NCBI GenBank assembly: GCA_031261985.1 | Contig: JAISIR010000007.1 | Coordinates: 786-64,785 of the forward strand | Source: Clostridiales bacterium | GTDB taxonomy: Bacteria > Bacillota > Clostridia > Monoglobales > WRBX01 | Reading direction: 5' to 3' | DNA length: 64,000 nucleotides | Shown: piece after piece, positions 13,002 through 63,640 of the stretch | Layout: every line of letters starts with the position of its first letter | Position numbering within the stretch: the first letter of the stretch is position 1 | Made by a program: the position numbers and the translations under genes | Notes under the pieces: generated by a model | What the model was told of the DNA's origin: nothing | What the model saw: only the letters and a program-made list of their open reading frames with translations | Database searches by the model: none

Positions 13002-13085
13002 TTAACGCAAATTTAACATAACCCCCTTTTTTACACTTGAAACTCTTCTTAAATTCTTGACAAACCCGAATATGCGTGATATAAT
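13002..13085 (+). promoter_or_regulatory. TTAACA-N5-TTAACA box plus sigma-A promoter
   Basis: TTAACG-CAAAT-TTAACA 13002-13018; TTGAAA 18 bp later (13037); TTGACA 13057-17bp-TGnTATAAT 13080. Confidence 0.7.
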
Positions 13086-13226
13086 TCAGGCATAATAAAC
13101 TTAAATGTACAAGCCCCGATATTTATAGGTAGAAATTTTGGGCTCATTATAAAGCTACCCAAACGGTAGCAAAAAATTATAGTTATTGATCTATTTCTTT
13201 GCTAATCGAAAGGATATACATAAATA

Positions 13227-13712
13227 ATGGGTAATAAACTAGATTTTGAAAAAATGAAAAATATTGGTCTGCCGGCAACCGAAAGAAAGGCAATGTTACC
13301 CTCTGTTGAGTGGACGATTTATGGGTTTATTGCAGTTTCTACTATTATAATAATGTATAAAGTATCGTCTGCAGAGGGGCAGGAATTTTCTCTATATATT
13401 AATATGATTATGTTAGTATATCTTTTTTCTGGTTTCTCTTTATTTAGTTCGTGGTTTATGCATAACACTGGTAAGGCAACTTTTTACAAAGATAGTATAA
13501 TGATAAACGGAACAAAATATGATAAATCCTTGTTTTTATATGTTTCATATTTACTATGCACCAGATTTGTTAATTATTCTCGCGTTTATGGAAGACGAGA
13601 TGAATTTTCTATTTTAATAAAATTCAAGCTCAAGAGTGGGGAGACGTTTTATAGCGAAATAGACCAGAATTACTTTAATAGTAAGATTAAACCTTATAAA
13701 ATTAAACGTTAG
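13227..13712 (+). CDS. Orphan membrane protein (2 predicted TM segments)
   Basis: 161-aa ORF with AAAGGA RBS, two hydrophobic stretches, basic C-terminus, downstream terminator. Confidence 0.7.
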   Translation: MGNKLDFEKMKNIGLPATERKAMLPSVEWTIYGFIAVSTIIIMYKVSSAEGQEFSLYINMIMLVYLFSGFSLFSSWFMHNTGKATFYKDSIMINGTKYDKSLFLYVSYLLCTRFVNYSRVYGRRDEFSILIKFKLKSGETFYSEIDQNYFNSKIKPYKIKR

Positions 13713-13754
13713 ACGCAGAATTATTTCGATATTTTATGACTGAATAATATTAAT

Positions 13755-13790
13755 CGAGTTGTTATATGATAACAGCTCGGTTTTTCTTTT
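13755..13790 (+). terminator. Rho-independent terminator
   Basis: cgagttgttat-atg-ataacagctcg followed by T-run. Confidence 0.65.
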
Positions 13791-13797
13791 TAAACCC

Positions 13798-13826
13798 TTG
13801 ACAAAGCTGCACAATAGTGATATAAT
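13798..13826 (+). promoter_or_regulatory. sigma-A promoter of AAA/VWA operon
   Basis: TTGACA-17bp-TATAAT with extended TG; GGGGGAG RBS downstream. Confidence 0.75.
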
Positions 13827-13859
13827 GCAGATATAAAATCAAGGGGGAGCAAATGCTTT

Positions 13860-15392
13860 ATGAGCGAAGCAACTTTAGCACTAAGTGCAAACCAGAATTT
13901 AGCACTAAGTACAAGGCAGAATATATCAATAAATAAGCAAGACTTAGACGATTTTAATAAAAAATTTAATGATCTAGGATATTTTTTTAGTAGTCAAACC
14001 GTTCTTCAACAGATTTTTCTTACTCTAAATTTTTATAATCTACAACGCAAAGGGCTTTCGGGCGTGCTTTTAGCAGGCGAGCCAGGCGTTGGTAAATCTT
14101 TTTTAGCCGAAGTTCTATCAAAAGTGGCAGGGTATGAGCTGCTTCAATATCAATGCACCGCCTCTACAACTGATGAGCAGCTTTTTGCTACCATCAGTCC
14201 TGTTGGCGTTGTTACTCGTAACGAAGAAGAAATGATTAAAAAAGGTATTCTTACGCAAGCGATTGACAGAGCTAATAATGGTGAAAAAATTGTCCTTTTA
14301 ATTGACGAGATAGATAAAGCTAACGAGAATATTGACCCATATTTTTTAACTTTTATGCAAGATGCTTTTTGTTTCACTCCTGAATTTGGAGCTAAACAAG
14401 TGGATAATGACAAGCGCGAGAACTTAATTGTTATTGTCTGCAAGAATAAGTGGAGAGAGCTAGACGGGTCGCTGCTTAGAAGGTTAAGGCGCGTAGAACT
14501 TGAATTGCCGACAGCCGAGAGCATGCAAAGAATAGTCGATTTTAGTGGCGATAACTACGACCCTGCTATGCGTAAAATTGCCCTTATTCTCTATGCGCAT
14601 ATGCGTAAGGAAAGAGAGAGTTTTTCGCGTGTGGCGACGGCGCAAGAGATTATAAATGCGCTAAACGATGATATTTTGCTTGAAAAAATAGAAGCGAGTG
14701 CAGCCGACCGTTTGTTTAGCTTGCTTAATTGGTTTTCTAATAATCATGATGCTGATTTTGAGAACCTTTGTAAAGTAATTAAAGATTTCGCTAAATTTGA
14801 TATAACTTCTGAGTTTAAGCCTGGGTTTGAACCTGTTCTTAACTTAACTTCAGAAGAAAGCGAGCGTTTGTTAAACCCTTATGGCGAGTTTTTTAAAGAA
14901 GTCTTTAGAGTTATTCAAAGCAATCTTACAACTTATTATGCAACCAATGGGAACAACCCTAAATTAATAGGTATAGTAAAATATAGCGGGAATAATATAG
15001 ATTTTAATATTCAGCAAAAGGAACTTACCTTTTTGCAAACTATTATTAACACAACGCCCGAGAAAGGGCTAGATAAAAGAATAAAAGTTGTAAATATGGC
15101 TGATGATGGACCGAACTCGTGTTATATGGCAGCTGTTCCTGTGAAAACTTTTGATAGCAATTACTATTTGCTTTTTTCTAACCAGAAAAATATGAATACC
15201 GAGAAATTTATAACAGGCATGCGAACCATTTTGGGGCAGGAAGAGAAGAAAACGACCTTTTTTGCTGGAAAAGTTCAAGCGGTAGGTGGAAGTGATACAG
15301 GGTTCCATAATGCTATGCTATCGGTTGAAGGGCTTGAGCCTAATGGCAATAATGCTAAATTCAACTTTTGGGGTAATGGAGGGGCGCGTTAA
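13860..15392 (+). CDS. MoxR/CoxD-like AAA+ ATPase with long C-terminal extension
   Basis: Walker A GEPGVGKS, Walker B LLIDEIDK, sensor/Arg finger RELDGSLLRRL. Confidence 0.8.
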   Translation: MSEATLALSANQNLALSTRQNISINKQDLDDFNKKFNDLGYFFSSQTVLQQIFLTLNFYNLQRKGLSGVLLAGEPGVGKSFLAEVLSKVAGYELLQYQCTASTTDEQLFATISPVGVVTRNEEEMIKKGILTQAIDRANNGEKIVLLIDEIDKANENIDPYFLTFMQDAFCFTPEFGAKQVDNDKRENLIVIVCKNKWRELDGSLLRRLRRVELELPTAESMQRIVDFSGDNYDPAMRKIALILYAHMRKERESFSRVATAQEIINALNDDILLEKIEASAADRLFSLLNWFSNNHDADFENLCKVIKDFAKFDITSEFKPGFEPVLNLTSEESERLLNPYGEFFKEVFRVIQSNLTTYYATNGNNPKLIGIVKYSGNNIDFNIQQKELTFLQTIINTTPEKGLDKRIKVVNMADDGPNSCYMAAVPVKTFDSNYYLLFSNQKNMNTEKFITGMRTILGQEEKKTTFFAGKVQAVGGSDTGFHNAMLSVEGLEPNGNNAKFNFWGNGGAR

Positions 15393-16886
15393 ATGATGAA
15401 TAATAACGCTTCAAACTCTAACCTTCAAACAAAAGCTAAACTTCAGGAAATTGCTGATTTACTTGAGGTTAATTTGAAAGCAAAGAAGAATAAACGAGTT
15501 TTTAATAAATTGAGAGCCAAGAAGCTTGAATTTAAAGGCGGTCAAGAGAAAGAAGGAACCGTTGACGAAGAAGATGCCTCGCAAAAATCTAAAAAAGAGA
15601 AAGCGCAAAAGCTGACTAAAGAACAATTAGAGTATATAAGGAATCATGCTGACCAACCGCTTGATTGGAATAAGCTGGAAGAAATTAAGGAACAATGTCA
15701 ACAGCCAAAGTTAGAGCTAGACGTCCAGTCTTCTGATGGGGAGTTTAGTTCTAGTGCGCAGGAACTTTTAGCAGATGCGTTAGAGGGGCAAGAGCTTGGC
15801 GAGGGAACACTTTCTGAAGAGGCACTAGAGGACACGCTCTCGAAGATATTGCAATATTTAGATGCAGAAACGTTAACTCAAATTTATAACAATGCAAAAC
15901 CGAAAAGTAGTTCTAAGGGAAAATCGGATGAGAATGATTTTTATGATTTGCTTGACGAATTTAGGTCCACAGAAAAGCTTTCGTACAAAGATTATAAAAA
16001 GAACAAAGAAAGCATGAATGATTTTGACAGCGACAATTACGATTTTGGCAGTGCGAAAATGGCACTTAAACATTACAAATTAACGCAAGAGCAGATTAAC
16101 AAAGAGCTTTCTGACTGGATTTTAAAAAGATTCGTTTCGCCTAACAACAATAGGTCAATAACATCTGATAAAATTGATTATTACAGGAAGCAATATGGCG
16201 ATAGATATATGCACAAAAAGAAAATAGTAAAGGATTTTGCAATGGGCTTGGAATATCGGATTCCGAGAGATACCTACTCACATCCTTTTGAAAAACAGCA
16301 CCCCCCTATTGCTATTTATTTTGATATCTCTGGAAGTAATTATAACTCGATAGATATGTATGCAAAAATTGTATCTAAAATTATGAAGAAAAATGTTTCG
16401 GTGTATATTGGTGCCGAGCCTGTGTTTTTAAGCTGTCGTGCTAAAGGGGATACGTTGCCAGCTGAAGATATACTAGATTATTGCTCTAATCTTGCGTATA
16501 ATGAGCCAGACGATGAGCTTGCAAAGTATTACGAATTTAAGCATTATAACTGGACGCATTTTGACGATTTAGTAGATGATGATAAAATTAAAACTTTAGT
16601 TTTGTTTACAGATTTTGATCGAGCGGAACATATAGCAAAGGCTAGTGAAAAATGTAATGTGTATTGGTTTTGTACAGAAATAAGAAATTCTAGGCATTGG
16701 GGCGGGCATGGAGTAAGGACGGAGTACCTTGACGATTTTAAAGGACACTTTATTGTTATAAACGAGGCTAATGACGCTTTGAAGTATTTGAAAAATGGAT
16801 TTGATAATAAAGAGTATGAAGAAAAAGAGCGCGCAAAGTATAAAGAACATATATTTGGTCAAAAGCAAAATGAAATGTTTAGATGA
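15393..16886 (+). CDS. VWA (MIDAS)-domain protein, likely partner of the AAA+ ATPase
   Basis: IAIYFDISGS (DxSxS), later LVLFTDFD; charged helical N-terminal half; abuts the ATPase stop codon. Confidence 0.7.
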   Translation: MMNNNASNSNLQTKAKLQEIADLLEVNLKAKKNKRVFNKLRAKKLEFKGGQEKEGTVDEEDASQKSKKEKAQKLTKEQLEYIRNHADQPLDWNKLEEIKEQCQQPKLELDVQSSDGEFSSSAQELLADALEGQELGEGTLSEEALEDTLSKILQYLDAETLTQIYNNAKPKSSSKGKSDENDFYDLLDEFRSTEKLSYKDYKKNKESMNDFDSDNYDFGSAKMALKHYKLTQEQINKELSDWILKRFVSPNNNRSITSDKIDYYRKQYGDRYMHKKKIVKDFAMGLEYRIPRDTYSHPFEKQHPPIAIYFDISGSNYNSIDMYAKIVSKIMKKNVSVYIGAEPVFLSCRAKGDTLPAEDILDYCSNLAYNEPDDELAKYYEFKHYNWTHFDDLVDDDKIKTLVLFTDFDRAEHIAKASEKCNVYWFCTEIRNSRHWGGHGVRTEYLDDFKGHFIVINEANDALKYLKNGFDNKEYEEKERAKYKEHIFGQKQNEMFR

Positions 16887-16981
16887 AAATGCAGCAATTG
16901 CTTGACAATTGCTAGGATTTATGGTAGTATTTACTTGAGCGATTCACCGCAGGTGGTGGAAATATACTTAGGGGGAGAATT

Positions 16982-18889: not shown

Positions 18890-20896
18890 CTATAATGTAA
18901 GAGTGGTTAGGCTAGTGGATTTTGGTATTGTGCTATTTAGCCCAGGAACCCATTGTTTGATGAACTCTTGCGGGTTGGCATTATATTGCTTGCTAACCTC
19001 GTCGGGCGGTAGCTTAAACAGGGCGGTAACGACAGCCTTTTGAGCCACTAGTCTTGGGGCTATTGATTGGATTTTATTTAGTTCTTCGATAACATGGTTG
19101 ATTATTATTGTGTTTTCAAACCCGTCAAAAGTGTTGTTATGACAGGCTTTTTCAAAATCGCCTACGGTGCGAATATTATAATTATGCGTTAAATAAAGCC
19201 GGTTTTTTTTATCTAATGAATCTATATTTTTAAGTGGCGTGTTTTCGTTTAAAAAGCAAGGAGAGGTATTTGATGAGAGATTGGCGAAGAAATCTTCGTT
19301 TAACCCAGTAATCTCTTGAGCTTTTTGCATAATGTCAAACGATGTCGCCTTTTGCACTTGGTCTATTTTGTTTATAATTTTTGGCGGTTTAATATTATCT
19401 ACAGAGCTGTCTGAATTTTGTTCTAAAAGTTTATAATCTTTGATTTTCATTTTAATCTCGTCAAGAGTGGTTTTTCCCATGTAGTGTATTTGTTTAAGTT
19501 CGTCTTCACTTGTGTTAATTAAATCGGCTACAGTTTTAATACCAAAACGACGCAAGCAATTAAACGCTCTTACAGAAAAATGTAGCTCGCTTATATCTAT
19601 GTCGTTAGCGGAATCGCTAAAAGACGAGTTTTTATTCATTACACCAGCAACGGTTATTTTTATATCATTATCAATTGGTGTTTGCGTAACTTGATTATTA
19701 TCAGATTCTTTAGTTGTATTTTTAACTACCACATCATTTTCTAGGTAGCGTTGGATTTTACTCATTATTTTAGAATGTGACCTTTCGCCTAATCTAGGGA
19801 GGTGCAACAGTGATTCGCCATTGTCTTTGGCGGTTATTTCTAATAGTTTGTCTATCGTGGTAATTCCTGCGCGAACTAAGCATAAATATGAGTGCGTGTT
19901 TAAATCTAGGCTCATTATAGGGAAGTAAGGTAAATAGGAATCGGCAACAGAGGAAATGGGGATTGCCATAAAAGGAGTCTCTTGGTCGACATAAGTTGTA
20001 CGTGTAATAGAAGCGGCTTTGTCGTAAAATTTTTGTAAATGCCTATAGGCGGCAATTAATTGATTGGTACAGAATTTAGGTGATGAAGTGTAGTTGTATT
20101 TATCGACAATCTGTTTATTTGTTAATTTTTCTGCGCCAAATAAGCCTAGCCTATGCGATAAAATTATCTGGCGATTTTTAGACAGACTATTAAAAGCTTC
20201 GGTAAAAAGCTCGTCGGGTAGGAGCCTACCATGATGCATATTGCCGCCTAGTGCTATAGATTCATTTAAAATTTGCTTGGCAATAGGTATGATGGTTTTA
20301 TCTATTTTAAAACTTGAATAAGGTGTATTTTGGGGTTGTTCTGAGGGAGAGGGGCTACGCATGAAGGGAAGTAAGCCTGTGGGCTTTAGTAATTCAAATA
20401 TTTTATAATCATCGCTGGATTCAGGCGGTGTTGCAGCCTTATACTTGCGCCAAAATCTTTTTATAGTGTGATCCATAAAAATTGCTAGCTGGCGCTCGGC
20501 AAGGTTATCGCTATCCATCCTTGGGGGAGTGCCATCTTGCTTTGTATAATCTATCCATAGTTTAGCGTACTCGGGAAGAGGTTTGTTTTTTGGGTGTGGG
20601 ATATACTCAAGCGCGCCTATGGGGCTTAGCAGCTCGTGGATTCTATAGTCGATAGTATCGGCGGGTGGCTTTAAAATGCTAACGCTTATGCCTTTGGCGC
20701 TATCTATATTAATGGTGCCGCGACCATATTTTGAGTGTAACTCAGATTTTATTTCAAACATTTTTTTGCCTAGTTTTTGTTCGTAATCGCTTTTTTGTTT
20801 ATAATTTTCAGGTAAAAAGCCATTCTCGTCGTAAAAAGCGCGTATTGTTTTAGCCCAAGCGTAAGTCATGCTTGAATCGATGTTGTTTATACTCAT
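18890..20896 (-). CDS. Multidomain protein: N-terminal helical repeats, sigma70 region-4-like segment, two or more RNA polymerase alpha-CTD-like domains
   Basis: ISELHFSVRAFNCLRRFGIKTVADL...MGKTTLDEI and SLDLNTHSYLCLVRAGITTIDKL...LGERS resemble the RpoA CTD in this window; LSKNRQIILSHRLGLFGAEKLTNKQI is sigma4-like; ATG 20896 follows GGGGG RBS. Confidence 0.8.
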   Translation of the reverse strand: MSINNIDSSMTYAWAKTIRAFYDENGFLPENYKQKSDYEQKLGKKMFEIKSELHSKYGRGTINIDSAKGISVSILKPPADTIDYRIHELLSPIGALEYIPHPKNKPLPEYAKLWIDYTKQDGTPPRMDSDNLAERQLAIFMDHTIKRFWRKYKAATPPESSDDYKIFELLKPTGLLPFMRSPSPSEQPQNTPYSSFKIDKTIIPIAKQILNESIALGGNMHHGRLLPDELFTEAFNSLSKNRQIILSHRLGLFGAEKLTNKQIVDKYNYTSSPKFCTNQLIAAYRHLQKFYDKAASITRTTYVDQETPFMAIPISSVADSYLPYFPIMSLDLNTHSYLCLVRAGITTIDKLLEITAKDNGESLLHLPRLGERSHSKIMSKIQRYLENDVVVKNTTKESDNNQVTQTPIDNDIKITVAGVMNKNSSFSDSANDIDISELHFSVRAFNCLRRFGIKTVADLINTSEDELKQIHYMGKTTLDEIKMKIKDYKLLEQNSDSSVDNIKPPKIINKIDQVQKATSFDIMQKAQEITGLNEDFFANLSSNTSPCFLNENTPLKNIDSLDKKNRLYLTHNYNIRTVGDFEKACHNNTFDGFENTIIINHVIEELNKIQSIAPRLVAQKAVVTALFKLPPDEVSKQYNANPQEFIKQWVPGLNSTIPKSTSLTTLTL

Positions 20897-20919
20897 AGAG
20901 ATTACCCCCATATGCCTTT

Positions 20920-20984
20920 ATTATATCATAAATATTGACAAAGTTCAAGTGTAAAAAAGGGGAATTATGTTAAATTTGTGTAAA
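20920..20984 (-). promoter_or_regulatory. TTAACA-N5-TTAACA box plus sigma-A promoter (minus strand)
   Basis: Minus strand: TTTACA-CAAAT-TTAACA (20984-20968), 19 bp, TTGAAC (20948-20943), 17 bp, TGnTATAAT (20925-20920). Confidence 0.75.
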
Positions 20985-21122
20985 GTGATAGCTCATATTA
21001 CAAAAATGTTAAATTAATGTGAATTGGGCAAAATAAACTTGACAAAAGTTGGAATTAATGATAATATATTCTAGTGGAAATAATATAAAGAAATATGAAA
21101 GAAAAAAAGAAGGAGAATTAAG

Positions 21123-26666: not shown

Positions 26667-26679
26667 GGTTTTTAAAGAT

Positions 26680-26743
26680 TTAACACAAATTTAACATAAA
26701 AGCGGATTTGCCTATTGCAATCCGCTTAATTTTGTGGTATAAT
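26680..26743 (+). promoter_or_regulatory. TTAACA-N5-TTAACA box plus sigma-A promoter
   Basis: TTAACA-CAAAT-TTAACA 26680-26696, 18 bp, TTGCAA 26715, 17 bp, TGnTATAAT 26738. Confidence 0.8.
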
Positions 26744-26781: not shown

Positions 26782-27543
26782 ATGTATGACAAAAATGAGT
26801 TAAACGAATTAAACGAATTGGCTAAGAAAATTTTGCCAGAAGTAGAAAAGCGCGCACTAAAGTTTATCGATGAAAACATGCCAGAGCATAAAAAGTGGTA
26901 TAAGAATCGTTATGCGATTATGAAATTTAATAAAGATTATGAGATTGCATATGATGATATTGATAAACATGTAAGTATAAAGACCGAGGATTTTAGGGTT
27001 TATCTTATTTTGCATCCCGAAAAAGGAATTGAAACGGCAGCAAGGGAAAATGATTTAGAAGAATTCAAAGAGCTTTTGAACGATGTTTTAAATAATATAG
27101 ACAATATTAGCTTTGATAAAATAATCGCATCGCCTAAAAAAGGATTGTACAGAAAATTAGTAGCAAGTAGTGATATTGCCGAAGGCTATGACAGGGCAAA
27201 AGATTTGATTGAATATCAGGAATATACCGAGCGTATTAACAAAATCACTTTAAAATATGAATCCGAAAGAAAGCTTTCTGAAGATAGACTAAAACGACCT
27301 TTTCAGCCTAAAGCTAAGCAACCTATTCTATTACATTCGAATTCATTTATGGAAAGAGTACATATTTTCCCGAAGGACTTAGCTACTAAAAAATCGGTGC
27401 GTGAAGAAATTAGCAAAAAGAAAAATGAAACCAAAAATGGAACGAAAAATTGGAGCGATAAAGCTAAAAGTCATCAACGCGCGGTGGCAAAGGCAAGCCT
27501 TAAAAAGGCGCAACAGATGAAAAAAGTGGGTAAAGGTAAGTAG
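26782..27543 (+). CDS. Orphan protein with highly basic C-terminal tail
   Basis: 253-aa ORF, GGGGAG RBS, own promoter; ends KASLKKAQQMKKVGKGK. Confidence 0.75.
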   Translation: MYDKNELNELNELAKKILPEVEKRALKFIDENMPEHKKWYKNRYAIMKFNKDYEIAYDDIDKHVSIKTEDFRVYLILHPEKGIETAARENDLEEFKELLNDVLNNIDNISFDKIIASPKKGLYRKLVASSDIAEGYDRAKDLIEYQEYTERINKITLKYESERKLSEDRLKRPFQPKAKQPILLHSNSFMERVHIFPKDLATKKSVREEISKKKNETKNGTKNWSDKAKSHQRAVAKASLKKAQQMKKVGKGK

Positions 27544-31574: not shown

Positions 31575-32819
31575 TTACTTCTCGTTCATCTCATCTAATG
31601 CCAGCACGCGGGTATGTTGTGTATGGAACCACTCGTGCTTATTTTTATTGGCTATGCCTATAATAGCGATTGGTACCCATGTTAGCGAGTAGAAAGAGTA
31701 AACGATGAAGCCCCAAACTGTGCGCAGGGTAAACTTCTTCTCGACTATCAACACAAGCGGGCCCCATAAAAATTGCATGACGGCGATGACGTTCCAAATG
31801 CTAGAGGGGATAAAGCCCCAAACGATAAGTGTGGTGGTGGGGTAGGCGACTTGCATCCATGCCATAACCGTGATAACACCCATAACGATGATGCGAAGTG
31901 GCTGCATTAAATACATGGCGCAGTCGAAAGGTTTTATATTTCCTTCGGTAAAAGTCTTTTTCATTAAAGGGGCAAAGAAGCGCGATGCGACATCGGCGTG
32001 GCCTTGCATCCAACGTATACGTTGCTTCCAACTTTGGGCGAAAGTGATAGGTTTTTCGTCGTAAATTTTAGCATCGTTAGCCCACGAAACTTTGATATTA
32101 TTTAACGCAAGCTTCATGGTAAATTCCATATCTTCGGTTAGGCAAGTTGCGCCCCAACCCATTTCTTTTAGTGTATCGGCTTGAACAACAAAGCCGGTGC
32201 CAGAAAGTTGGCAGCCAAGACCAAGATTATACCTAGCCTGCTGGAATAGTTTGTTAACCGTCCAAAAAGCGAGTGAATATGAATACGAAATCCAGGAATC
32301 GTTAGGGTTTTTACTATCTACATAACCTTGAACAGCTTTATGCCCAAGCTGAGTTTGCTTGTTCATCTCGTGTAAAAAGTTAGGGTCTACTAAGTTATCG
32401 GCATCAAAAATTGCCACGTAATCGTACTGACGCTCCATATTAAATAGTTTATCGAACATCCATTCTAGCGCGAAGCCTTTGCCACGTTTATCGGCATTAG
32501 AGCGTTCAAAAACGTTTGCGCCAGCGGTTCGTGCAACATCGGCGGTAGAATCGGTGCAATTATCGGCTATTACGAAGATATCGTAAAACTCGCGCGGGTA
32601 TTTAAGCTTAGTAAGGCTTGTTACCATGTTTTTGATAACAGCTTGCTCGTTATGCGCGGCAACTATTAGTGCAAAGGTATTATGCCCGCCTGGGATATCC
32701 TTTGGCTTACGACGTGGGATAAAGGCGAACAGAGATATGATGAAGTAATATGTACCCAACATTAAAAATAAAATTTGGACTGAATAGTTAATATACAAAA
32801 GCATTGACGGTTCTTGCAT
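31575..32819 (-). CDS. GT2 family processive glycosyltransferase (membrane-bound)
   Basis: IVAAHNE, ADNCTD, FDADN, LTEDME, QRIRW (QxxRW); ATG 32819 after AAAGGAG. Confidence 0.9.
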   Translation of the reverse strand: MQEPSMLLYINYSVQILFLMLGTYYFIISLFAFIPRRKPKDIPGGHNTFALIVAAHNEQAVIKNMVTSLTKLKYPREFYDIFVIADNCTDSTADVARTAGANVFERSNADKRGKGFALEWMFDKLFNMERQYDYVAIFDADNLVDPNFLHEMNKQTQLGHKAVQGYVDSKNPNDSWISYSYSLAFWTVNKLFQQARYNLGLGCQLSGTGFVVQADTLKEMGWGATCLTEDMEFTMKLALNNIKVSWANDAKIYDEKPITFAQSWKQRIRWMQGHADVASRFFAPLMKKTFTEGNIKPFDCAMYLMQPLRIIVMGVITVMAWMQVAYPTTTLIVWGFIPSSIWNVIAVMQFLWGPLVLIVEKKFTLRTVWGFIVYSFYSLTWVPIAIIGIANKNKHEWFHTQHTRVLALDEMNEK

Positions 32820-32891: not shown

Positions 32892-32955
32892 ATTATATAC
32901 TATATTGAAACAAAATGCAAGCATTTTTTTAAAGTTTTTGTTAAATTTTTGTTAA
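32892..32955 (-). promoter_or_regulatory. TTAACA-N5-TTAACA box plus sigma-A promoter of the glycosyltransferase
   Basis: Minus strand: TTAACA-AAAAT-TTAACA (32955-32939), 18 bp, TTGCAT (32920-32915), 17 bp, TATAAT (32897-32892). Confidence 0.75.
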
Positions 32956-33012
32956 AATTTTTACTAAAACATCCATTTATACATTCTTATTCTATGTAGG
33001 GAAGAAGAAAAT

Positions 33013-34461: not shown

Positions 34462-34527
34462 CTTGAATGAACAATGAACAATGAACAGTTAAGGAAATAA
34501 ATTTTTGCTAACGCTCAAATTTATGAG

Positions 34528-34583
34528 TTAACACAAATTTAACATTTAAAAGTATTGCATTTGCAATACTTTTGTGCTATAAT
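34528..34583 (+). promoter_or_regulatory. TTAACA-N5-TTAACA box plus sigma-A promoter
   Basis: TTAACA-CAAAT-TTAACA 34528-34544, 10 bp, TTGCAT 34555, 17 bp, TGnTATAAT 34578. Confidence 0.75.
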
Positions 34584-34616: not shown

Positions 34617-35027
34617 ATGAGAAAAGAAAATATGAATCATGCTATAAAACTTTTGGAACATGTATCGGGCGATAAATATAACGAGACTCTAAAGAATATT
34701 CAAGATACTATGTACAAATATGGGAATGACCAATGGTGGCTATCGAATGATGTTCAATATAAGGCTTATCGTCAAGCGAACGAAAATATGATGCTTATAA
34801 CGCCTAGGGAATTTGCCGATGGTGTAAACTTGATATTAGACAAAGACTTTACAATGGACGAGATTGCTTGGTTGGCTTCTGATATTAGGGAAGCTGTGAA
34901 TAAGGCTTGGGATAAGAGATTGAAGTCGGTTAAAAAAAGCCTTAAGAATAATAATCGTGTTGCTAGGGATAAGGGCAAAGGGTCGAGGGTATCGCACAAG
35001 GTTGGTGCGCTTAAAAGGCCGAGGTAG
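34617..35027 (+). CDS. Orphan protein with highly basic C-terminal tail
   Basis: 136-aa ORF, GGGGGA RBS; ends KRLKSVKKSLKNNNRVARDKGKGSRVSHKVGALKRPR. Confidence 0.72.
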   Translation: MRKENMNHAIKLLEHVSGDKYNETLKNIQDTMYKYGNDQWWLSNDVQYKAYRQANENMMLITPREFADGVNLILDKDFTMDEIAWLASDIREAVNKAWDKRLKSVKKSLKNNNRVARDKGKGSRVSHKVGALKRPR

Positions 35028-35042: not shown

Positions 35043-36446
35043 TTATAGCGGCTTAATTTCTATTTGAGGTTGCCCGCCATTATGGCTTGATTTATGTATG
35101 AACGCTGGAACTTGAGGTCTTATATTAATTAGCTCGCCTCTTGTATCATCAATTAGCTTTTTAATGTTATCCGAAGATTGCATTTGTTCTTGCCATTCGG
35201 CTATTTTGGTATTCAAGCCATAAGTTCCATTTACAAAATGGTCTATTTTGTTTGTATTCAATCCTTCTTTTTTAAAAGCTGTCCAAAGCTTGTCAATAAT
35301 TCCTTGATACGCGTCCCCCACACGCTTTATCCACTCGGGCGGCATACCAAGCGAAAGTTGTCTTGTAAAGCGGCTATATTCTGAAATATTTATAGTTCTG
35401 CCTAATTCTTTTTGTATTTTTAACTCAAAATGCCTATGACGAGGGTCTAGTAGTCTTGTTAGAATCTTACTTTCTGGGTCTTGACAGGTATAGTGCGTTT
35501 CACCTTGTTTCTCTGATAAATCAATAAAGCTTAAACCAGCATTTTTATCAAACATAACATTTTCGCCGATTTCATCATAACCAAACGCAATTTTTTTATC
35601 AGATACCAATAGTTTTACACCATGGACAAAACTATCTATCTGCTCTTGCGATAAATTAGCGATTTCTTCTAATCGAGTGGGGTATTTGTTTATATCAGCC
35701 ATATAATGCTCATAAATTTCGTCAATAGTTTTATCGGTTTTTGCAAACGAACCTTGCGAGCAAGTGCCTTCGTGAACAGGAACGCCGACGGCACGCTCTT
35801 GCAACATAAAACCATAAGGCTGGGTTGGGGCGTTGCCACCTTTAAAACAAAAACGGTGGAATTCTGCATCATCTTCTAAAGTGTGGTCTAGTGTTCTTGG
35901 TGTATTTATGCCAGATTCTATTGCATAGTCAAGCTCGGGTTTTAGCGCCATTAATTTTTCTATATCACTTTTTGGAGCATATAACAAAGCGCTGTCATCA
36001 AGAGTAAAGCAGAATTTAGTTGTTCCTCTATGGTCGTACTCTCTGCGATTTTTGGCTTCGGTTATAGCGTTAGATAGTTTTAAATGGCTAATATCTTTTA
36101 TCATTATTCTACTTTTGGGTTCTTGGGGAGTATACCCAAGTTTAGTATAAAAACTAACTAAATCGCCCTCTCCACTTGCAAAAAGACGAATGGATTTACA
36201 ATTATTCTCGGCAGCTTTATTTTCAAATTCTTTCATTAAGGATATAGCGAGTCCTTTTCCGCGTAAATCGGAGCGCACCCATAAATCATCAATAAGTATA
36301 GACCCATCGGTTTGTGGAGTTTCGCCTAAAACATGGCATAATTCTTGCCCAGTTTCTTTTGAAAATAACTGTATATATTCCCAATTGTAATTAACTATTT
36401 CTGCATTAAGCGACAATGCTTTTTGTTGCAAAGATTCGATCTGCAT
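35043..36446 (-). CDS. GNAT acetyltransferase fused to a putative protein-kinase-like domain
   Basis: LWVRSDLRGKGLA...LVSFYTKLGY (GNAT); HRGTTKFCF, GINTP, MLQERAVG, DEIGENVMFD, FIDL (kinase-like); GGAGGTG RBS. Confidence 0.72.
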   Translation of the reverse strand: MQIESLQQKALSLNAEIVNYNWEYIQLFSKETGQELCHVLGETPQTDGSILIDDLWVRSDLRGKGLAISLMKEFENKAAENNCKSIRLFASGEGDLVSFYTKLGYTPQEPKSRIMIKDISHLKLSNAITEAKNRREYDHRGTTKFCFTLDDSALLYAPKSDIEKLMALKPELDYAIESGINTPRTLDHTLEDDAEFHRFCFKGGNAPTQPYGFMLQERAVGVPVHEGTCSQGSFAKTDKTIDEIYEHYMADINKYPTRLEEIANLSQEQIDSFVHGVKLLVSDKKIAFGYDEIGENVMFDKNAGLSFIDLSEKQGETHYTCQDPESKILTRLLDPRHRHFELKIQKELGRTINISEYSRFTRQLSLGMPPEWIKRVGDAYQGIIDKLWTAFKKEGLNTNKIDHFVNGTYGLNTKIAEWQEQMQSSDNIKKLIDDTRGELINIRPQVPAFIHKSSHNGGQPQIEIKPL

Positions 36447-36478: not shown

Positions 36479-36542
36479 ATTATACTATTATATTTTGTCA
36501 AAGTCAATGGCAATTAAGCGGTTTATGTTAGGTTTGTGTTAA
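36479..36542 (-). promoter_or_regulatory. TTAACA-N5-TTAACA box plus sigma-A promoter (minus strand)
   Basis: Minus strand: TTAACA-CAAAC-CTAACA (36542-36526), 18 bp, TTGACT (36507-36502), 17 bp, TATAAT (36484-36479). Confidence 0.78.
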
Positions 36543-36682
36543 ATCTTGCCTATATCTTTAGAAGCGCAGAAGAATTCAATTTGTCGCAGCGTATTTACAT
36601 TATAAGGGAAAATATTTTAATCTCAGCTCTTGACAAATCCATTTTTTTATGGTAACATATATAGGTACTTAATTTTACATAT

Positions 36683-36759
36683 GGCGGTGTAGCTTAGTCG
36701 GCTAGAGCATTCGGTTCATACCCGAAAGGTCGGTGGTTCGATTCCACTCGCCGCTACCA
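36683..36759 (+). tRNA. tRNA-Met (CAT), elongator type
   Basis: GGCGGTG acceptor, anticodon loop TTCATAC, GTTCGATTC, encoded CCA. Confidence 0.93.
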
Positions 36760-36838
36760 TGATTATTACCATCTATGGATAAACTCTATAGGTGGTATTT
36801 TTATAATTATTATCAGTAGTTTATTGATTTTATAAAAT

Positions 36839-36902
36839 TTAACATAAATTTAACATAACTGTCTATTTTACTATTGCATTTTATCTAAAAGTATGGTATT
36901 AT
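36839..36902 (+). promoter_or_regulatory. TTAACA-N5-TTAACA box plus sigma-A promoter
   Basis: TTAACA-TAAAT-TTAACA 36839-36855, 18 bp, TTGCAT 36874, 17 bp, TGnTATTAT 36897. Confidence 0.78.
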
Positions 36903-36913: not shown

Positions 36914-37528
36914 GTGATACATATGCCAAGTATAACAACGTTATTTAATAATGACACAAAAGACCAAATTGATAAACCGCAAGTAGATACTAATAAAACT
37001 ATGGGGGAGAACCATCCGGATTTTCATAATTTAGTTTCTGTTGCTAAAAGTAAGGAATTTGGTAAGAGTAATGCAGAGTTTTTAGGTGGCACAGCAATAC
37101 AATCGCTTAGCTTGGTAGCCGAGACTTACGCTGCAGTTATATCTAATGTTCCAGCTGCGCTAATGTTTGCCGGTACCTATGCGCTTGGCACGGCTGCAGT
37201 TTTCCATGGAATATACGGTAATAAGCAACTTGAGGATTTTGCAAAAGTTATAGCGAATAATCCTGAGAAGGACGTAAAAATATCGCAAGGTGTTAAGAAT
37301 AAGTTATTAAAATATTCAAAGATAAGTGACCTTAAATATACCGAGAACCCTGTTACGGTGCTTAATTCTATTTTAGTAGTGCCAGATAAAGAGTATAAGG
37401 CACTTGTGAAGGCGACTAAGGCGAAGTTGAAAGCTTCGGTTCGTGGGAAAATTGGCAAGCATGGGAAGAAGGCTGCGGCGCCCACGCCAGAGAGTTTGAT
37501 TGTGAACCCGCCGATGATGAAAGTGTGA
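36914..37528 (+). CDS. Orphan protein with central Ala/Gly-rich hydrophobic hairpin and basic C-terminus (start may be ATG 36923)
   Basis: AAGGAGTG RBS; LGGTAIQSLSLVA...LGTAAVFHGI; KATKAKLKASVRGKIGKHGKK. Confidence 0.72.
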   Translation: MIHMPSITTLFNNDTKDQIDKPQVDTNKTMGENHPDFHNLVSVAKSKEFGKSNAEFLGGTAIQSLSLVAETYAAVISNVPAALMFAGTYALGTAAVFHGIYGNKQLEDFAKVIANNPEKDVKISQGVKNKLLKYSKISDLKYTENPVTVLNSILVVPDKEYKALVKATKAKLKASVRGKIGKHGKKAAAPTPESLIVNPPMMKV

Positions 37529-45793: not shown

Positions 45794-45849
45794 ATGTAGA
45801 AACATAAATAAGGTAAACATTTGCTGTGCTAATTTTCTACTATATAAAT

Positions 45850-45913
45850 TTAACACAAATTTAACATAAATTGCTTAAAAATGGTTGACTATTCTATATT
45901 ATTTTGGTATAAT
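45850..45913 (+). promoter_or_regulatory. TTAACA-N5-TTAACA box plus sigma-A promoter
   Basis: TTAACA-CAAAT-TTAACA 45850-45866, 18 bp, TTGACT 45885, 17 bp, TGnTATAAT 45908. Confidence 0.8.
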
Positions 45914-45924: not shown

Positions 45925-46188
45925 ATGTTTACTATGAATCCAAAAAAACTAATTAGAACGCAATTTATGACTGCTATGAAGGATGCTATGAAAGGGCCTT
46001 TTGAATATCAACTTATTGCAGGAAAAGACTATGGGAATATAGGTGATACCAAGTTACTTAGTCTTTTTGAACATTATAATTATGAAAAATATAATGTTGT
46101 TACAGTAACTAAATTAATTAATGATTTGAGAAAAATTAAGAATAATGAAATTAAGAAGGTTAATAATGTTAGAAAAATGTCAAAATAA
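45925..46188 (+). CDS. Small orphan protein with basic C-terminus (start may be ATG 45934)
   Basis: AGGAG RBS, own promoter; ends LRKIKNNEIKKVNNVRKMSK. Confidence 0.6.
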   Translation: MFTMNPKKLIRTQFMTAMKDAMKGPFEYQLIAGKDYGNIGDTKLLSLFEHYNYEKYNVVTVTKLINDLRKIKNNEIKKVNNVRKMSK

Positions 46189-59118: not shown

Positions 59119-59131
59119 GTGTAAACACCTC

Positions 59132-59208
59132 TGTAAAGAATATGTAACAAAAATGTAAAATATGTTTTTTAAAAAAGGGGTTTACAAATTTTTTTTTTGT
59201 GATATAAT
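59132..59208 (+). promoter_or_regulatory. murA promoter with upstream TGTAA[AC]-N5 triple direct repeat
   Basis: TGTAAA-GAATA-TGTAAC-AAAAA-TGTAAA 59132-59159; TTTACA 59181, TGnTATAAT 59203. Confidence 0.55.
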
Positions 59209-59264
59209 TAATGTAGTATGGTAAGTATGTTATAAATATTAGTAGTACCAAAGGAACGTTGTAA

Positions 59265-60560
59265 ATGGAAAAAATGATAGTAATGGGTGGCAAGCCCTTA
59301 AATGGCGAGGTTACAATTAGCGGCGCGAAAAATTCTGCTGTGGCAGTTATTCCTGCAGCTTTATTAGTCGACGGCGTTTGTAGGATAGAAAATGTTCCTA
59401 ATATAAACGATGTTACCGTGCTGCTTAATATTTTGGCATCGCTTGGGGCTAAGCACAGGTATGTTTCTAGTGATGTAATAGATATAGATTGCACCAACTT
59501 AAAAACGCATGTTGTGCCATACGAAATGGCGGTTAAAATGCGCGCGTCTTCGTACTTAATAGGTAGCCTTATCGGCAGATTTAACAAGGCCGAGGTTGCC
59601 ATGCCAGGTGGGTGTAATTTTGGGGTTAGGCCTATAGACCAACATCTTAAAGGGTTTGTTGCCCTTGGCGCAGATGTGAAACTAGAGCATGGTGTGGTTA
59701 ATGCTGTTGCCGAGAAGCTTATTGCTTCGTCAATTTATTTAGATGTAGTTTCGGTTGGTGCGACTATTAATATAATGCTTGCAGCTAGCAAGGCAGAGGG
59801 TGTTACGCATATCGAAAATGCGTCTAAAGAGCCTCATGTTGTTGATGTTGCCAACTTCCTTAACGCAATGGGAGCGAATATAAAAGGCGCGGGCACCGAT
59901 GTAATAAAAATCACTGGTGTGCGTAGCTTGCATGGTGGAACCTATAGTATCATCCCCGACCAAATTGAAGCAGGAACTTTTATGCTTGCGGCGGCGGCTA
60001 CTAAAGGGAATTGTTTAATCAAAAATGTTATACCTAAGCATTTAGAGGCAATTACCTCTAAGCTTATAGAGATGGGTGTGCAGGTAGAAGAATTTGAGGA
60101 TTCTGTTAGAGTTTCGCGCACAGGTGAGCTTAAAGCTACTAATATAAAAACGCTGCCTTACCCGGGGTATCCTACCGATTTACAACCGCAAACGGTTGCG
60201 CTTTTATCTATCGCTAAGGGTGTAAGTGTGATAACCGAGAGTGTGTGGGATAATCGCTTTCAGTATATAGATGAAGTTCGTCGAATGGGTGCAGACATTA
60301 AGGTAGATGGTAGAAGTGCCATTATTCAGGGTGTGCATGAGCTTATGGGTGCGCCAGTTAAGATGACGGATTTGCGCGCGGGTGCGGCGCTGATTATTGC
60401 AGGACTAGCTGCTAATGGTGTTACCGAGCTTGCTAATTTGGTGCATATAGATAGAGGATACGAGAATTTAGAGCAAAAATTACAAGCGTTAGGTGCGCAA
60501 ATTGTGCGTAAGGTATGTGATGATGCGCCAGAGTTCCCTGATGTGAAAAAGCATGCTTAG
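59265..60560 (+). CDS. murA: UDP-N-acetylglucosamine 1-carboxyvinyltransferase
   Basis: ISGAKNS, MRAS, PGGCNFGVRPIDQH, TDLRAGAAL, HIDRGY. Confidence 0.97.
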   Translation: MEKMIVMGGKPLNGEVTISGAKNSAVAVIPAALLVDGVCRIENVPNINDVTVLLNILASLGAKHRYVSSDVIDIDCTNLKTHVVPYEMAVKMRASSYLIGSLIGRFNKAEVAMPGGCNFGVRPIDQHLKGFVALGADVKLEHGVVNAVAEKLIASSIYLDVVSVGATINIMLAASKAEGVTHIENASKEPHVVDVANFLNAMGANIKGAGTDVIKITGVRSLHGGTYSIIPDQIEAGTFMLAAAATKGNCLIKNVIPKHLEAITSKLIEMGVQVEEFEDSVRVSRTGELKATNIKTLPYPGYPTDLQPQTVALLSIAKGVSVITESVWDNRFQYIDEVRRMGADIKVDGRSAIIQGVHELMGAPVKMTDLRAGAALIIAGLAANGVTELANLVHIDRGYENLEQKLQALGAQIVRKVCDDAPEFPDVKKHA

Positions 60561-60603
60561 CTTACTAGCTGATTAAACAAATTTTTAATTAAGGATTATT
60601 AAG

Positions 60604-61401
60604 ATGGAAATAACTTCACTTTCTAGCGGGAGTAGTGGCAATTGTATTTTAGTTAGCCATAACGAAACGAATATTTTAGTTGATTGCGGACGTTCGGGTA
60701 AACACATCGATTCTTGCTTGGGCGAAGTAGGGCTAACGGGGAAAGATATCGACTATATCCTTATAACGCACGAGCATAACGACCATATTAGTGGTGTGGG
60801 CGTATACTCGCGTAAATATAATTTGCCCATTTACTCTACTGTGGGCACTTTTTCGTACATCAATATGCATAATAAGTTAGGTAAAATTGCGCCAGATAAT
60901 ATACATACTTTTGATTATGGGCAGGAGCTTAAGCTTGGTGGCGTGCATGTTATTCCTTTTAAAACACCTCATGATGCGACTCAGCCTGCGTGCTATAGGT
61001 TTATTGCAGATGGGAAATCGGCGGTTGTTGCTACCGATATTGGCTACCTAAGCGATAGTGTGTGCGAGCATTTGTTAGATGGTGCGGATATTGCGTTTAT
61101 CGAGGCTAACCACGATATTAATATGCTAAAAAATGGTGATTATCCTTACTTTTTAAAGGATAGGATATTGGGGGATAAGGGGCATTTGCCTAACGAGAAA
61201 TCGGCGGAAATTGCGGTTAAGATGATAAAAAAAGGTACGAAACATATAATGCTTGGGCATTTAAGCACCGAGAATAACCTGCCTAAGCTTGCGTATGAAA
61301 CGGTTAAGAATGCGCTAGAGAATGCTGGAGCGACGGTGGGCGATGATGTTTTGCTAGATGTGGCTAATAGGAACGAGCCGAGTAAGAGGATGATAGCGTA
61401 A
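60604..61401 (+). CDS. Metallo-beta-lactamase-fold hydrolase (YycJ/WalJ-like)
   Basis: SGSSGN, THEHNDH, PHDA, EANHD, GHLSTENN. Confidence 0.88.
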   Translation: MEITSLSSGSSGNCILVSHNETNILVDCGRSGKHIDSCLGEVGLTGKDIDYILITHEHNDHISGVGVYSRKYNLPIYSTVGTFSYINMHNKLGKIAPDNIHTFDYGQELKLGGVHVIPFKTPHDATQPACYRFIADGKSAVVATDIGYLSDSVCEHLLDGADIAFIEANHDINMLKNGDYPYFLKDRILGDKGHLPNEKSAEIAVKMIKKGTKHIMLGHLSTENNLPKLAYETVKNALENAGATVGDDVLLDVANRNEPSKRMIA

Positions 61402-61510
61402 AAGCAAATGATTAATTAACGAAAAAACTTTTAGCCGAAACTAAAAGTTTTATTTTTTTAGAAATCATCTGTTTTGCATTTATTATTAATTACTAATTAC
61501 TAATTATTAA

Positions 61511-63442
61511 TCATCCTTCGTCTTTTACTTTGGCGACCACCACGGTTACATCGTCTACACTTTCGTTATAAACTTCTGCCTGCTGCAAAATATCATTCAT
61601 CATGTTTTGCGGCGTCATTCCATTTAAATCTAAGCTGCTTAAATATCCTGCAATCCAAGGGGTTTGCGGGTTTTCTGCGCCGTCCGATACCATTATAACA
61701 TAATCGCCATCGTCTACATATGTTGTGCGCGTTTCTATATCTGCATCGCCAAGTATGCCAACGGGGAGCGATGTTGAGGGGATTTGTTCGACCACGTTCT
61801 CGCGCTGGCGGACGATATAGCTTGTGTTAGCGCCTGTTTTGATAAACTCTGCCCTACCGTTAAATAGGTCGATAACTAAAACATCGGCGGTGGCATACGC
61901 ATCTTCGCGCTCTTTTAGCATTAATACAGAATTAACCAGCTCCATTGTTTTAAGCCTGTCGATGCCTGCTTTTAAGAAGCGTTGAGCTAAATCGACGGTT
62001 GCATTTGAATACTTATTAGCGCACTCGCCTATGCCCATTCCGTCGGATATAGCAATTATATACTTGCCGTCGTCCATGTATCTAAAACTAAAGGTGTCGC
62101 CGCACACATCTTGGCTTTGTGCGCGCATGCTTTGACCTGTGACCTCTACTTTAAGCCTAGGGCATTCGACCAATCGTAATTTATGCCTGCCTAGTGAATC
62201 TAGAGTGTCGCTTGCTAACTCGAACGGACGTTTTAGTACTTGATTGACCACAGCCATAACGCTATCTACACTTGCTAAGTTGTTAGAGCGCAACGTTATA
62301 TTGACCTCGTATTGCTCTTGAGAGTTTTGCACCACAACGACGCTGCTATGCCTTACGCCGCTTACAATTAACTCGCCCGATAGCTCGGCATCGAGTGCGG
62401 GGTTAAACTCTACATCGCAATCGGCTTTGCGTGCTAAGCTGCCAAAGTTGGATATAACGCCAATGTTAGAGTTATTATCGTTTGCCGCGCTTATATGCCC
62501 TAACCTTGCTATGTTCTCGCTGACTGTTCGAGAGTCGCTAATTTTAGTGATATAGCTACTTGTGTTTGTTGCGGTGTCGAAAGAATCGGCTAATTGGTTA
62601 TAGCTTACTTTATTGCCGAACCTGCCACTGGCTGCGGTGCGTGTAGGGATAGTATTTCGCACCACTATAGGGCGATTGGCGCGCCGCTTTTTATACTCGT
62701 CGTTAAGTGCCTCTTTTAGCTTGGTAAAGCGAATGCAACTTTTGGTGAAGTAATCGGGGAAGTCCTCGTACACAGCCTCGCCAAACTCCTCATACACAGG
62801 CAGAAGCTTAGATAGTGCATCGAAGGTGGAGTTGTAGTTTTTTTGCCAGCACTCATCGTTTCTTGCACAACGACGGCATACTTTATTGCTTATGCTCTCT
62901 ACAATTGGCAGACCCTCGCCGCTTTGTACCACGCCTATATTATTGAAGATTTTTGCCCATTCTTCTTTAAAATTGCATTTTTTGCCATTCCATAGAAGCA
63001 ATGTCATCTCTCTAAAGTTGCGCAGCGCGTACGAGCCAAAACCTATTAAAACGCACTCTAGAGGAAGCATAAGGCTATCGTACAAATTAAAGCCTAGTGC
63101 GAATATGTAGATGGTGCCAGATATCATTAACGCGGTGGAAAGTGCCAATGGCTCTAGGCTATCTTTTTGCGAGATGGTAACGCCAGCGTACTCGATTACC
63201 TCGCGGATTACCATATACAAAACCAGCGCGACAATGTATTTGGTAGCTGCTATGCCAAGCGATGTGCTAAGCACGCCAACTGTCACGCAAAGAGCGACGA
63301 GTTTTGCAAACTTTCCTTTTTTATAGATTGCACCATAAATTATCAGTCCAAAAGGTGCAAGCGTGTCGAAAATTACAATATGCGAAGCAAAAGCTATTAT
63401 CGCACATAATGCTAAACGGAACCAAACAAGTTTTTTTGTCAT
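61511..63442 (-). CDS. spoIIE: Stage II sporulation protein E (PP2C phosphatase), shortened membrane region
   Basis: N-terminal TM helices, VCRRC...CW, CGD, ISDGMG, ATAD, MVSDG, DDVTVVV. Confidence 0.82.
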   Translation of the reverse strand: MTKKLVWFRLALCAIIAFASHIVIFDTLAPFGLIIYGAIYKKGKFAKLVALCVTVGVLSTSLGIAATKYIVALVLYMVIREVIEYAGVTISQKDSLEPLALSTALMISGTIYIFALGFNLYDSLMLPLECVLIGFGSYALRNFREMTLLLWNGKKCNFKEEWAKIFNNIGVVQSGEGLPIVESISNKVCRRCARNDECWQKNYNSTFDALSKLLPVYEEFGEAVYEDFPDYFTKSCIRFTKLKEALNDEYKKRRANRPIVVRNTIPTRTAASGRFGNKVSYNQLADSFDTATNTSSYITKISDSRTVSENIARLGHISAANDNNSNIGVISNFGSLARKADCDVEFNPALDAELSGELIVSGVRHSSVVVVQNSQEQYEVNITLRSNNLASVDSVMAVVNQVLKRPFELASDTLDSLGRHKLRLVECPRLKVEVTGQSMRAQSQDVCGDTFSFRYMDDGKYIIAISDGMGIGECANKYSNATVDLAQRFLKAGIDRLKTMELVNSVLMLKEREDAYATADVLVIDLFNGRAEFIKTGANTSYIVRQRENVVEQIPSTSLPVGILGDADIETRTTYVDDGDYVIMVSDGAENPQTPWIAGYLSSLDLNGMTPQNMMNDILQQAEVYNESVDDVTVVVAKVKDEG

Positions 63443-63532
63443 TAGTCACACTTCCAATTACCATTTTCTTCCAATTATACACCTATTAAAAATAAATGTG
63501 TGTTGAAATATGTCGTCAAAATAAAAAAAACT

Positions 63533-63539
63533 TTCGACA
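63533..63539 (-). promoter_or_regulatory. Spo0A box upstream of spoIIE
   Basis: TTCGACA = TGTCGAA on the minus strand, about 90 bp upstream of spoIIE. Confidence 0.55.
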
Positions 63540-63542
63540 AAT

Positions 63543-63640
63543 TTAACGAAAATTTAACAAAGATTTAACATAAAGGGCGAAAAAGCCATTGAAATTAGGG
63601 ATTTTTTATGGTATAATATAAATATAAACAAAAGGGGAGC
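63543..63640 (+). promoter_or_regulatory. Triple TTAAC[AG] box, sigma-A promoter and RBS without a downstream ORF
   Basis: TTAACG-N5-TTAACA-N5-TTAACA 63543-63570, 18 bp, TTGAAA 63589, 17 bp, TGnTATAAT 63612, GGGGAG 63634. Confidence 0.72.

Follow-up and report, generated by a model that had tools for sequence, protein, structure and literature searches.

The window considered here is a 64,000-nucleotide stretch of one contig (C5:786-64785) from the genome of a Clostridiales bacterium, an assembly of 1,442,134 bp in 21 contigs that is 94% complete. It carries, at nine places, a short direct repeat with the pattern TT[AT]AC[AG]-N5-[TC]TAACA, here called the box, which is followed at short distance by a sigma-A promoter and a gene on the same strand (Table 1). 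The genome encodes YpeB and Spo0A, which makes the organism a spore former, and it is an uncultured, small-genome, gut-type member of the Clostridia. By an EF-G-like protein, its nearest named relatives are uncultured metagenome-assembled genomes of Clostridia, including Congzhengia sp., at 62-67% identity. Only one other genome, from a sister genus, is available in its family.

The boxes are scattered over most of the window but are absent from the ribosomal-protein cluster at 1-12600. A first-pass annotation of the window had listed the nine sites, and every position and strand was recovered, together with a tenth match at 63543 that overlaps the last of them. Each of the nine faces an open reading frame (ORF) on its own strand, and the distances described to the -35 hexamer hold: 18 bp at six sites, 19 bp at 20968, 10 bp at 34528 and, at 13002, a TTGAAA at 18 bp with the complete promoter 20 bp further on. 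The short gap of Box 5 is about one helical turn less than usual. Boxes 6 and 7 stand back to back, and the latter lies 83 bp after a tRNA gene. Since the first ATG of the ORF behind Box 2 lies just 8 nt past the -10 hexamer, its real start is probably the ATG at 20896.

Table 1. Boxes, promoters, genes and other features. Positions are those of the window unless a contig (C) of the source genome is named; the gap is the distance in bp from the box to the -35 hexamer.
Feature	Position	Strand	-35	-10	Gap	Description
tRNA	12742-12813					upstream of Box 1
Box 1	12997-13021	+	13057-13062	13080-13085	38	listed as 13002; AAGAA TTAACG CAAAT TTAACA TAA; TTGAAA at 18 bp; full promoter TTGACA-N17-TATAAT at 38 bp
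First gene, Box 1	13227-13712	+				161 aa, one hydrophobic segment, no Pfam
ORF behind it	13860-15392	+				AAA_5 ATPase, 510 aa
ORF behind it	15393-16886	+				497 aa, no Pfam
Box 2	20965-20989	-	20943-20948	20920-20925	19	listed as 20968; distal hexamer TTTACA
First gene, Box 2	18890-20911	-				673 aa, two RNA_pol_A_CTD domains
Box 3	26675-26699	+	26715-26720	26738-26743	18	listed as 26680
Palindrome, Box 3	26703-26724					CGGATTTGCCTATTGCAATCCG, spans -35
First gene, Box 3	26782-27543	+				253 aa, no relative in any database searched
Box 4	32936-32960	-	32915-32920	32892-32897	18	listed as 32939
First gene, Box 4	31575-32819	-				family-2 glycosyltransferase (GT2), four hydrophobic segments
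Box 5	34523-34547	+	34555-34560	34578-34583	10	listed as 34528; followed by TTT instead of TAA
First gene, Box 5	34617-35027	+				136 aa, no Pfam family over cut-off
Box 6	36523-36547	-	36502-36507	36479-36484	18	listed as 36526; spacer CAAAC, proximal hexamer CTAACA
First gene, Box 6	35043-36446	-				467 aa, N-terminal GNAT domain alone recognisable
tRNA	36683-36756					upstream of Box 7
Box 7	36834-36858	+	36874-36879	36897-36902	18	listed as 36839; -10 TATTAT
First gene, Box 7	36923-37528	+				201 aa, no Pfam family over cut-off
Box 8	45845-45869	+	45885-45890	45908-45913	18	listed as 45850
First gene, Box 8	45934-46188	+				84 aa, no Pfam
Box 9	63538-63573	+	63589-63594	63612-63617	18	triple repeat, hexamers 63543, 63554, 63565
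Gene, Box 9	63794 to past window end	+				392 aa, signal-peptide-like N-terminus, leader of about 170 nt
Other -35 palindromes	C2:53275, C3:19493, C10:6843, C11:55725, C13:85614, C17:47854					in box promoters outside the window
Boxes after tRNA genes	C5:103607, C6:33890					outside the window
Leader hairpins	C3:19470, C11:54186, C5:71343, C17:5644					examples
α-CTD-like protein L004	C1:99431-102559	-				1042 aa
WalR-like regulator	C2:64035-64787					250 aa; neighbourhood C2:63624-66573
PhoP/PnpS-like pair	C5:87267-88837 (PhoP-like regulator C5:88136-88837)					
Spo0A paralogue	C20:14980-15771	-				beside canonical Spo0A
Spo0A-like, sister genus	C80:3056-3832; C27:58-804					two extra proteins (contigs of that genome)

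The pattern occurs far more often than expected by chance. Its 10 matches in the window compare with a mean of 0.25 and a maximum of 2 in 100 dinucleotide-preserving shuffles, none of which reached 10. A scan of the whole genome found 83 exact matches, a scale far above the nine sites first noticed, as opposed to 5 for the pattern written backwards. Scanning with a matrix made from 58 aligned sites gave 104 hits at 14 bits or more (2 in the reversed genome) and 81 at 20 bits or more (none in the reversed genome); the hits collapse to 91 merged sites. Intergenic DNA holds 73 of the 76 strong merged sites, and at 68 of the 76 a coding sequence starts on the same strand within 420 bp, at a median distance of 90 bp. 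The module of box and promoter thus described comprises about 75-90 promoters, or some 5% of the genes in this small genome.

Alignment of 58 sites extends the box to a 25-bp motif, AAAA(T/C)-TT(A/T)ACA-(C/T)AAA(T/C)-TTAACA-TAA, or AAAAT-TTAACA-CAAAT-TTAACA-TAA in summary form. In each hexamer, 97% of these sites retain the C of ACA; for the flanking AAA and TAA the figure is 75-97%. Such base-specific conservation argues for a protein that reads bases, rather than for mere A/T richness. The two hexamers form a direct repeat with an 11-bp period, within the 10-11 bp typical of sites for regulators of the OmpR/PhoB type.

The position of the box relative to the promoter is equally constant. With the gap at each genome match taken to the best downstream -35/-10 pair, 42 of the 83 exact sites have 18 bp and 17 have 19 bp; the remaining gaps include 20-21 bp (five sites), 28-29 bp (six, most of them distal units of triple repeats) and 9-10 bp (four). 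The sigma-A promoter has a 17-bp spacer in 81 of the 83, and the core promoters are near consensus, with TTGnnn, the 17-bp spacer, often a TG extension and then TATAAT. Conversely, 49 of the 260 intergenic TTGNNN-N17-TATAAT promoters in the genome, roughly one in five, carry an exact box at 17-21 bp. If the -35 hexamer is placed at -35 to -30, the 25-bp motif spans about -75 to -51 with its centre near -62, and it never overlaps the -35 or the -10. A centre near -62 is the classical class I activator position, from which the α C-terminal domain of RNA polymerase is contacted, and the fixed, helically phased placement of the box upstream of the -35 (18-19 bp in 59 of 83) is that expected of a class I site. 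The minority gaps of 9-10 bp, and of 8 bp in related metagenome contigs, are about one helical turn off the usual one. The module is thus stereotyped, oriented and held at a fixed distance, as had been proposed, and it is dispersed: 26 of 74 sites have their nearest neighbour within 3 kb, where random placement in intergenic DNA predicts 24.7.

The genes behind the boxes are for the most part without known family. The first gene behind each strong box was scanned against Pfam at the curated cut-off, as was a seeded random draw of 20 non-box genes of at least 100 aa, with genes outside the window called by a simple home-made ORF picker based on codon usage. The cut-off was reached by three of eight box genes in the window and nine of 57 outside it, 12 of 65 in all, versus 17 of the 20 controls (Fisher's exact p = 1.1e-7). 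The enrichment before genes without family that the first-pass annotation had predicted is therefore borne out. Within the window its description of orphan genes holds in part: five of the eight first genes scanned have no Pfam family, while the GT2, GNAT and α-CTD (C-terminal domain of the RNA polymerase α subunit) proteins do have one. The site at 63554 had been described as having no gene; in fact, an ORF starts at 63794, which was identified outside the Pfam scan by its match to solved structures of DacC/PBP5 D-Ala-D-Ala carboxypeptidases (E 2e-54).

Families recognised among the box genes include AAA ATPase, GNAT, GT2, GGACT, HD, VWA, GreA, MurC and a short PTS-like stretch, as well as a methyltransferase domain in a 702-aa protein and two proteins with α-CTD domains. 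There are only a few small paralogue groups. The box genes are AT-rich, with a GC content of 37.0% versus 41.3% and 31.5% versus 39.7% at third codon positions (Mann-Whitney p about 1e-14), and their products are enriched in K, E and N and depleted in G and V, but the coding score per codon is the same for box and other genes. A hydrophobic segment is present in 10% of box proteins versus 32% of the rest. The effector or host-interaction programme that had been suggested for the set thus finds no support. WXG100, contractile (phage) sheath and flagellin families were not found in this 94% complete genome, in a search that did not extend to type IV systems.

Two of the orphans were followed through exhaustive searches. 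The 253-aa protein behind Box 3 found only itself among 5.8 billion clusters and had no usable hit in a protein atlas. For a box-driven family with four members, a profile search of 1.84 billion representatives recovered only those four and one marginal hit. The AlphaFold model of this family is all-helical (predicted local distance difference test, pLDDT, 76.9), and it gave no match in the PDB at E <=0.001, with a best template-modelling (TM) score of 0.27.

Two large box-driven proteins consist of domains like the α-CTD of RNA polymerase itself. The 673-aa protein behind Box 2 has two α-CTD domains (Pfam 94.6 bits), the better of which keeps the SVRxxNCL and G-K motifs of RpoA, and it has no relative in 185,579 species genomes. 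The 1042-aa protein encoded elsewhere in the genome has at least three degenerate α-CTD copies. In the other 30 genomes searched, the domain is carried at most by rpoA, with one genome giving no match and one exception (G022) that has two small extra fragments; in the sister genus, it is carried by rpoA alone.

Across genomes, the module was followed with the composite pattern TTWACA-N5-TTAACATAA-N14-16-TTG. It occurs 48 times in the source genome, 14 times in the sister-genus genome and not at all in the remaining 149 genomes from the order (7 families, 33 genera); the backwards control matched once, in one other genome. Among 401 sampled genomes of the class, the source genome again had 48, two genomes had one match each and 398 had none. 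The box-plus-promoter module is restricted to one family. The sister-genus sites share the layout, with TTTACA as the distal hexamer, but the genes behind them differ. No homologue of the source genome's box genes was found in ten sister-genus box loci examined, and of five ORFs there, one encodes a 3D domain, another SLH domains and the remaining three no Pfam family. Synteny between the two genomes is limited: one flanking gene was not found with the query used and, around the other, there are three collinear genes only. Target genes turn over between the two genera while the module persists.

Beyond the species collection, a 20-base box string was found in 35 metagenome contigs, most of which look like chance matches. 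However, three contigs (L196, L204 and L208), from organisms that share about 57% identity with the source genome in their housekeeping proteins, carry three to four tandem units ending 8 bp before a TTGACA or TTGCAA -35, one helical turn closer than in the source genome. In these arrays, the same module takes a different layout.

A large and unexplained fraction of bacterial genomes consists of orphan genes, which raises the question of how such genes come to be expressed and regulated. Here, about 5% of the genes, mostly true orphans, stand behind one precisely placed cis-element, so that this question becomes testable. The sister genus provides a natural comparison, with the same switch and different cargo, and such genes can be spotted in uncultured relatives by the module, which is a simple sequence marker. 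As a regulatory principle this is familiar, but a family-restricted module that gathers orphan genes, with its cargo swapped between sister genera, is unusual. A search of the literature on the motif or on an orphan regulon found nothing relevant.

The explanation that we favour, with somewhat more confidence than doubt, is that one sequence-specific transcription factor, probably a response regulator, binds at the box and co-regulates these promoters from the class I position. The argument lies in the direct repeat with base-specific conservation, its 11-bp period, its strict orientation and the distance fixed to within 1 bp. The factor would bind head-to-tail as a dimer on two 11-bp units (xAAAy-TTAACA), or on three in some promoters, and from -75 to -51 it would contact RNA polymerase at the adjacent sigma-A promoter. 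About 75-90 dispersed promoters would thereby come under one signal, most of them driving single, species-specific, AT-rich proteins that are not exported. A direct repeat of this period centred near -62 fits the OmpR/PhoB-type activator site that the first-pass annotation had recognised in it. Judged from the DNA sequence, a protein may plausibly occupy the box and activate from there, with the genes behind it expressed together, and some proteins can be proposed for the role. The genome encodes four regulators of the OmpR type. The most likely binders would be, in this order, a WalR/YycF-like regulator present across the order, a paralogue of Spo0A confined to this family and a PhoP-like regulator.

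In B. subtilis, PhoP boxes are TT(A/T/C)ACA repeats 11 bp apart. The hexamer, its strand relative to transcription and the period all agree with the present box, and the three to four tandem units of the related metagenome contigs are also as in PhoP sites. However, PhoP sites take the place of the -35, whereas the source genome keeps a consensus -35 at 18 bp downstream of the box, and its targets show no link to phosphate. The genome does encode a PhoP/PnpS-like pair. PhoU and a clear pst operon were not found in it, and its two PBP_like_2 genes have no pho-type promoters.

The WalR site agrees with the box read on the other strand. Its consensus in B. subtilis is given as TGTWAH-N5-TGTWAH (PMC9210968), and TGTTAA-ATTTG-TGTTAA, as the box reads in reverse complement, agrees with the consensus quoted there at each of the 12 specified positions and has the same 11-bp direct repeat. 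The consensus has 150 matches in the whole source genome on both strands versus 34 in the reversed control; for C. difficile, the same source lists 29 intergenic hits of the exact consensus (PMC9210968). The WalR-like regulator scores 334 bits against the YycF/WalR equivalog (cut-off 340), and its DNA-binding domain is close to the solved domains of WalR and VicR. Its gene has no kinase gene beside it; the neighbours are an M23 peptidase gene and, upstream of polC, a 52-aa ORF. WalR regulons are small and made up of cell-wall genes, unlike the 75-90 promoters found here, which are mostly before non-exported orphans. The cell-wall targets are few, namely the DacC-like gene, MurC and GT2 (in the sister genus, the 3D-domain and SLH proteins), and 53 of the 65 first genes have no Pfam family.

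The half-site TGTTAAA also matches the 0A box, TGTCGAA, at five of seven positions. Canonical Spo0A is described as contacting G2, C4 and G5 of that box, the last two specifically (PMC3485338); G2 is kept in the half-site, and the arrangement is tandem. The Spo0A paralogue finds its best match in the sister genus (44% identity, 222 bits), and no other genome searched exceeds 183 bits, so that its phyletic pattern is that of the module, on only two related genomes. It keeps the VERAIRH helix, three residues preceding it being changed, and a canonical TGTCGAA lies just downstream of its own promoter. The sister genus has two extra Spo0A-like proteins. Second Spo0A copies of other lineages are also seen in several other genomes of the order.

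The nearest published analogy, in regulatory logic though not in secretion, comes from Legionella and Coxiella, where a PmrA box marks many Icm/Dot effector genes of atypical GC content (PMC2701608). As far as that account goes, both would be cases of a box for a single OmpR-type regulator placed on many dispersed, lineage-specific genes of atypical composition, in which the box predicts membership of the set. The PmrA targets, however, are substrates of a known secretion system, whereas the proteins described here look cytoplasmic and have no export signals.

Several points weigh against the tandem-dimer factor or against one candidate for it. The core promoters are so near consensus that they may do without an activator, a point in favour of negative or modulatory control. 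The WalR-like regulator is present at 63-71% identity in 29 of 30 relatives, 28 of them outside the family and without the module, and so cannot alone explain the family restriction; the single 3D-domain (YocH-like) gene of the source genome, the expected WalR target, has no box. In the half-site, C4 and G5 of the 0A box are T and A, so canonical Spo0A, as described in PMC3485338, should bind poorly; a changed specificity of the paralogue is a guess, since these contacted positions are the very ones that differ and the paralogue keeps VERAIRH. Finally, orphan status is Pfam-based for most box genes, with exhaustive searches in two cases and a control of 20 genes, and the gene calls are home-made.

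A rather unlikely but real rival follows from the strength of the core promoters. Near-consensus promoters with an extended -10 should fire unaided, so the box might instead be an operator for negative control, at which a repressor, or a silencer of the nucleoid type, holds down AT-rich genes of recent arrival until a signal frees them. The targets do exceed the genome in AT content, a usual trait of silenced foreign genes, and the seven box promoters with a palindrome over the -35 can be taken as layered negative control. However, a box that stays clear of both promoter hexamers, at a distance constant within 1 bp in 59 of 83 sites and with variants a helical turn off, points to a factor that faces the polymerase rather than to a roadblock or a spreading silencer, and the motif is no degenerate A/T patch but a direct repeat that is both short and specific. 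It is less probable still that nothing binds the box except polymerase. With an A3T3 tract in every 11-bp unit and helical phasing between the units, a curved or UP-like element of phased AAATTT could aid polymerase through its α-CTDs, possibly together with the multi-α-CTD proteins. The genome has two such extra proteins with two or more of these domains, both behind boxes, and the best of the domains retains the RpoA motifs. Against this, the C of ACA is not required for minor-groove reading of A-tracts, and the element at -75 to -51 lies beyond the usual UP region of -60 to -40. The boxes are also concentrated on orphans rather than on highly expressed housekeeping genes, with none in the ribosomal-protein cluster, and the sister genus has the module without extra α-CTD proteins.

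Nor is it probable that the shared box reflects only common origin, as a travelling promoter that arrived with its genes from phage or other mobile DNA. In favour of this, the targets are AT-rich, unrelated singletons, and a 31,474-bp viral contig (L190, identical to L212) has 11 matches to the generic pattern TTWACR-N5-YTAACA within 14.4 kb, often flanking a GC-rich palindrome, CGGGCCGGCCCG, and sigma-A-like promoters. However, this contig has no DNA or protein similarity to the source genome and a different layout, and its largest ORF had no match among phage records. Ten box proteins compared with PHROGs gave no match below E 0.001, and some targets are ordinary chromosomal genes (GreA, MurC, the DacC-like gene). 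A mobile cassette should show conserved ends or flanks, but there is no conservation upstream of the box, in the gap between box and -35 or downstream of the genes, where neither a shared 3'-end motif nor cassette ends were found. Insertion next to tRNA genes was rejected, since a tRNA within 500 bp is seen at 5 of 76 sites and random placement in intergenic DNA would give 6.4; clustering of the sites was rejected as well, on the neighbour distances given above.

The tandem-dimer factor can be extended into a broader and rather speculative scheme, to which we give little credence as a whole. The box and promoter would act as an entry module of the family for new genes, read by the Spo0A paralogue or a redeployed WalR, which would wire species-specific orphan genes into one developmental or stress programme. 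The content of the regulon would turn over completely between sister genera with the cis-module and its reader constant, and the α-CTD-repeat proteins would feed back on the same polymerase contact.

Some box promoters have further elements. In seven of them, a 22-bp palindrome, (C/A)GGATT-N10-AATCC(G/T), lies across the -35 (Table 1); there are 10 such palindromes in the genome versus none in the reversed control. A second regulator, probably a negative one, is likely to use it as its operator in this subset. In many box leaders, a stable hairpin would form a few bases past the predicted start, such as CAAATTGCC...GGCAATTTG or TGTGAT...GTCACA followed by an A-run, and these may serve as 5' stabilisers. 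An Rfam scan of the window found three tRNAs only.

Three boxes, Box 1 and two outside the window (Table 1), each lie 204-205 bp after a tRNA gene (Glu, Glu and Lys), and the sequence just before them is similar (TTTTTTATTTCCCC...). They may belong to a small duplicated tRNA-flank unit. Behind the first gene of Box 1, the AAA_5 ATPase and the adjoining family-less protein form a pair that recalls two-gene NTPase defence modules.

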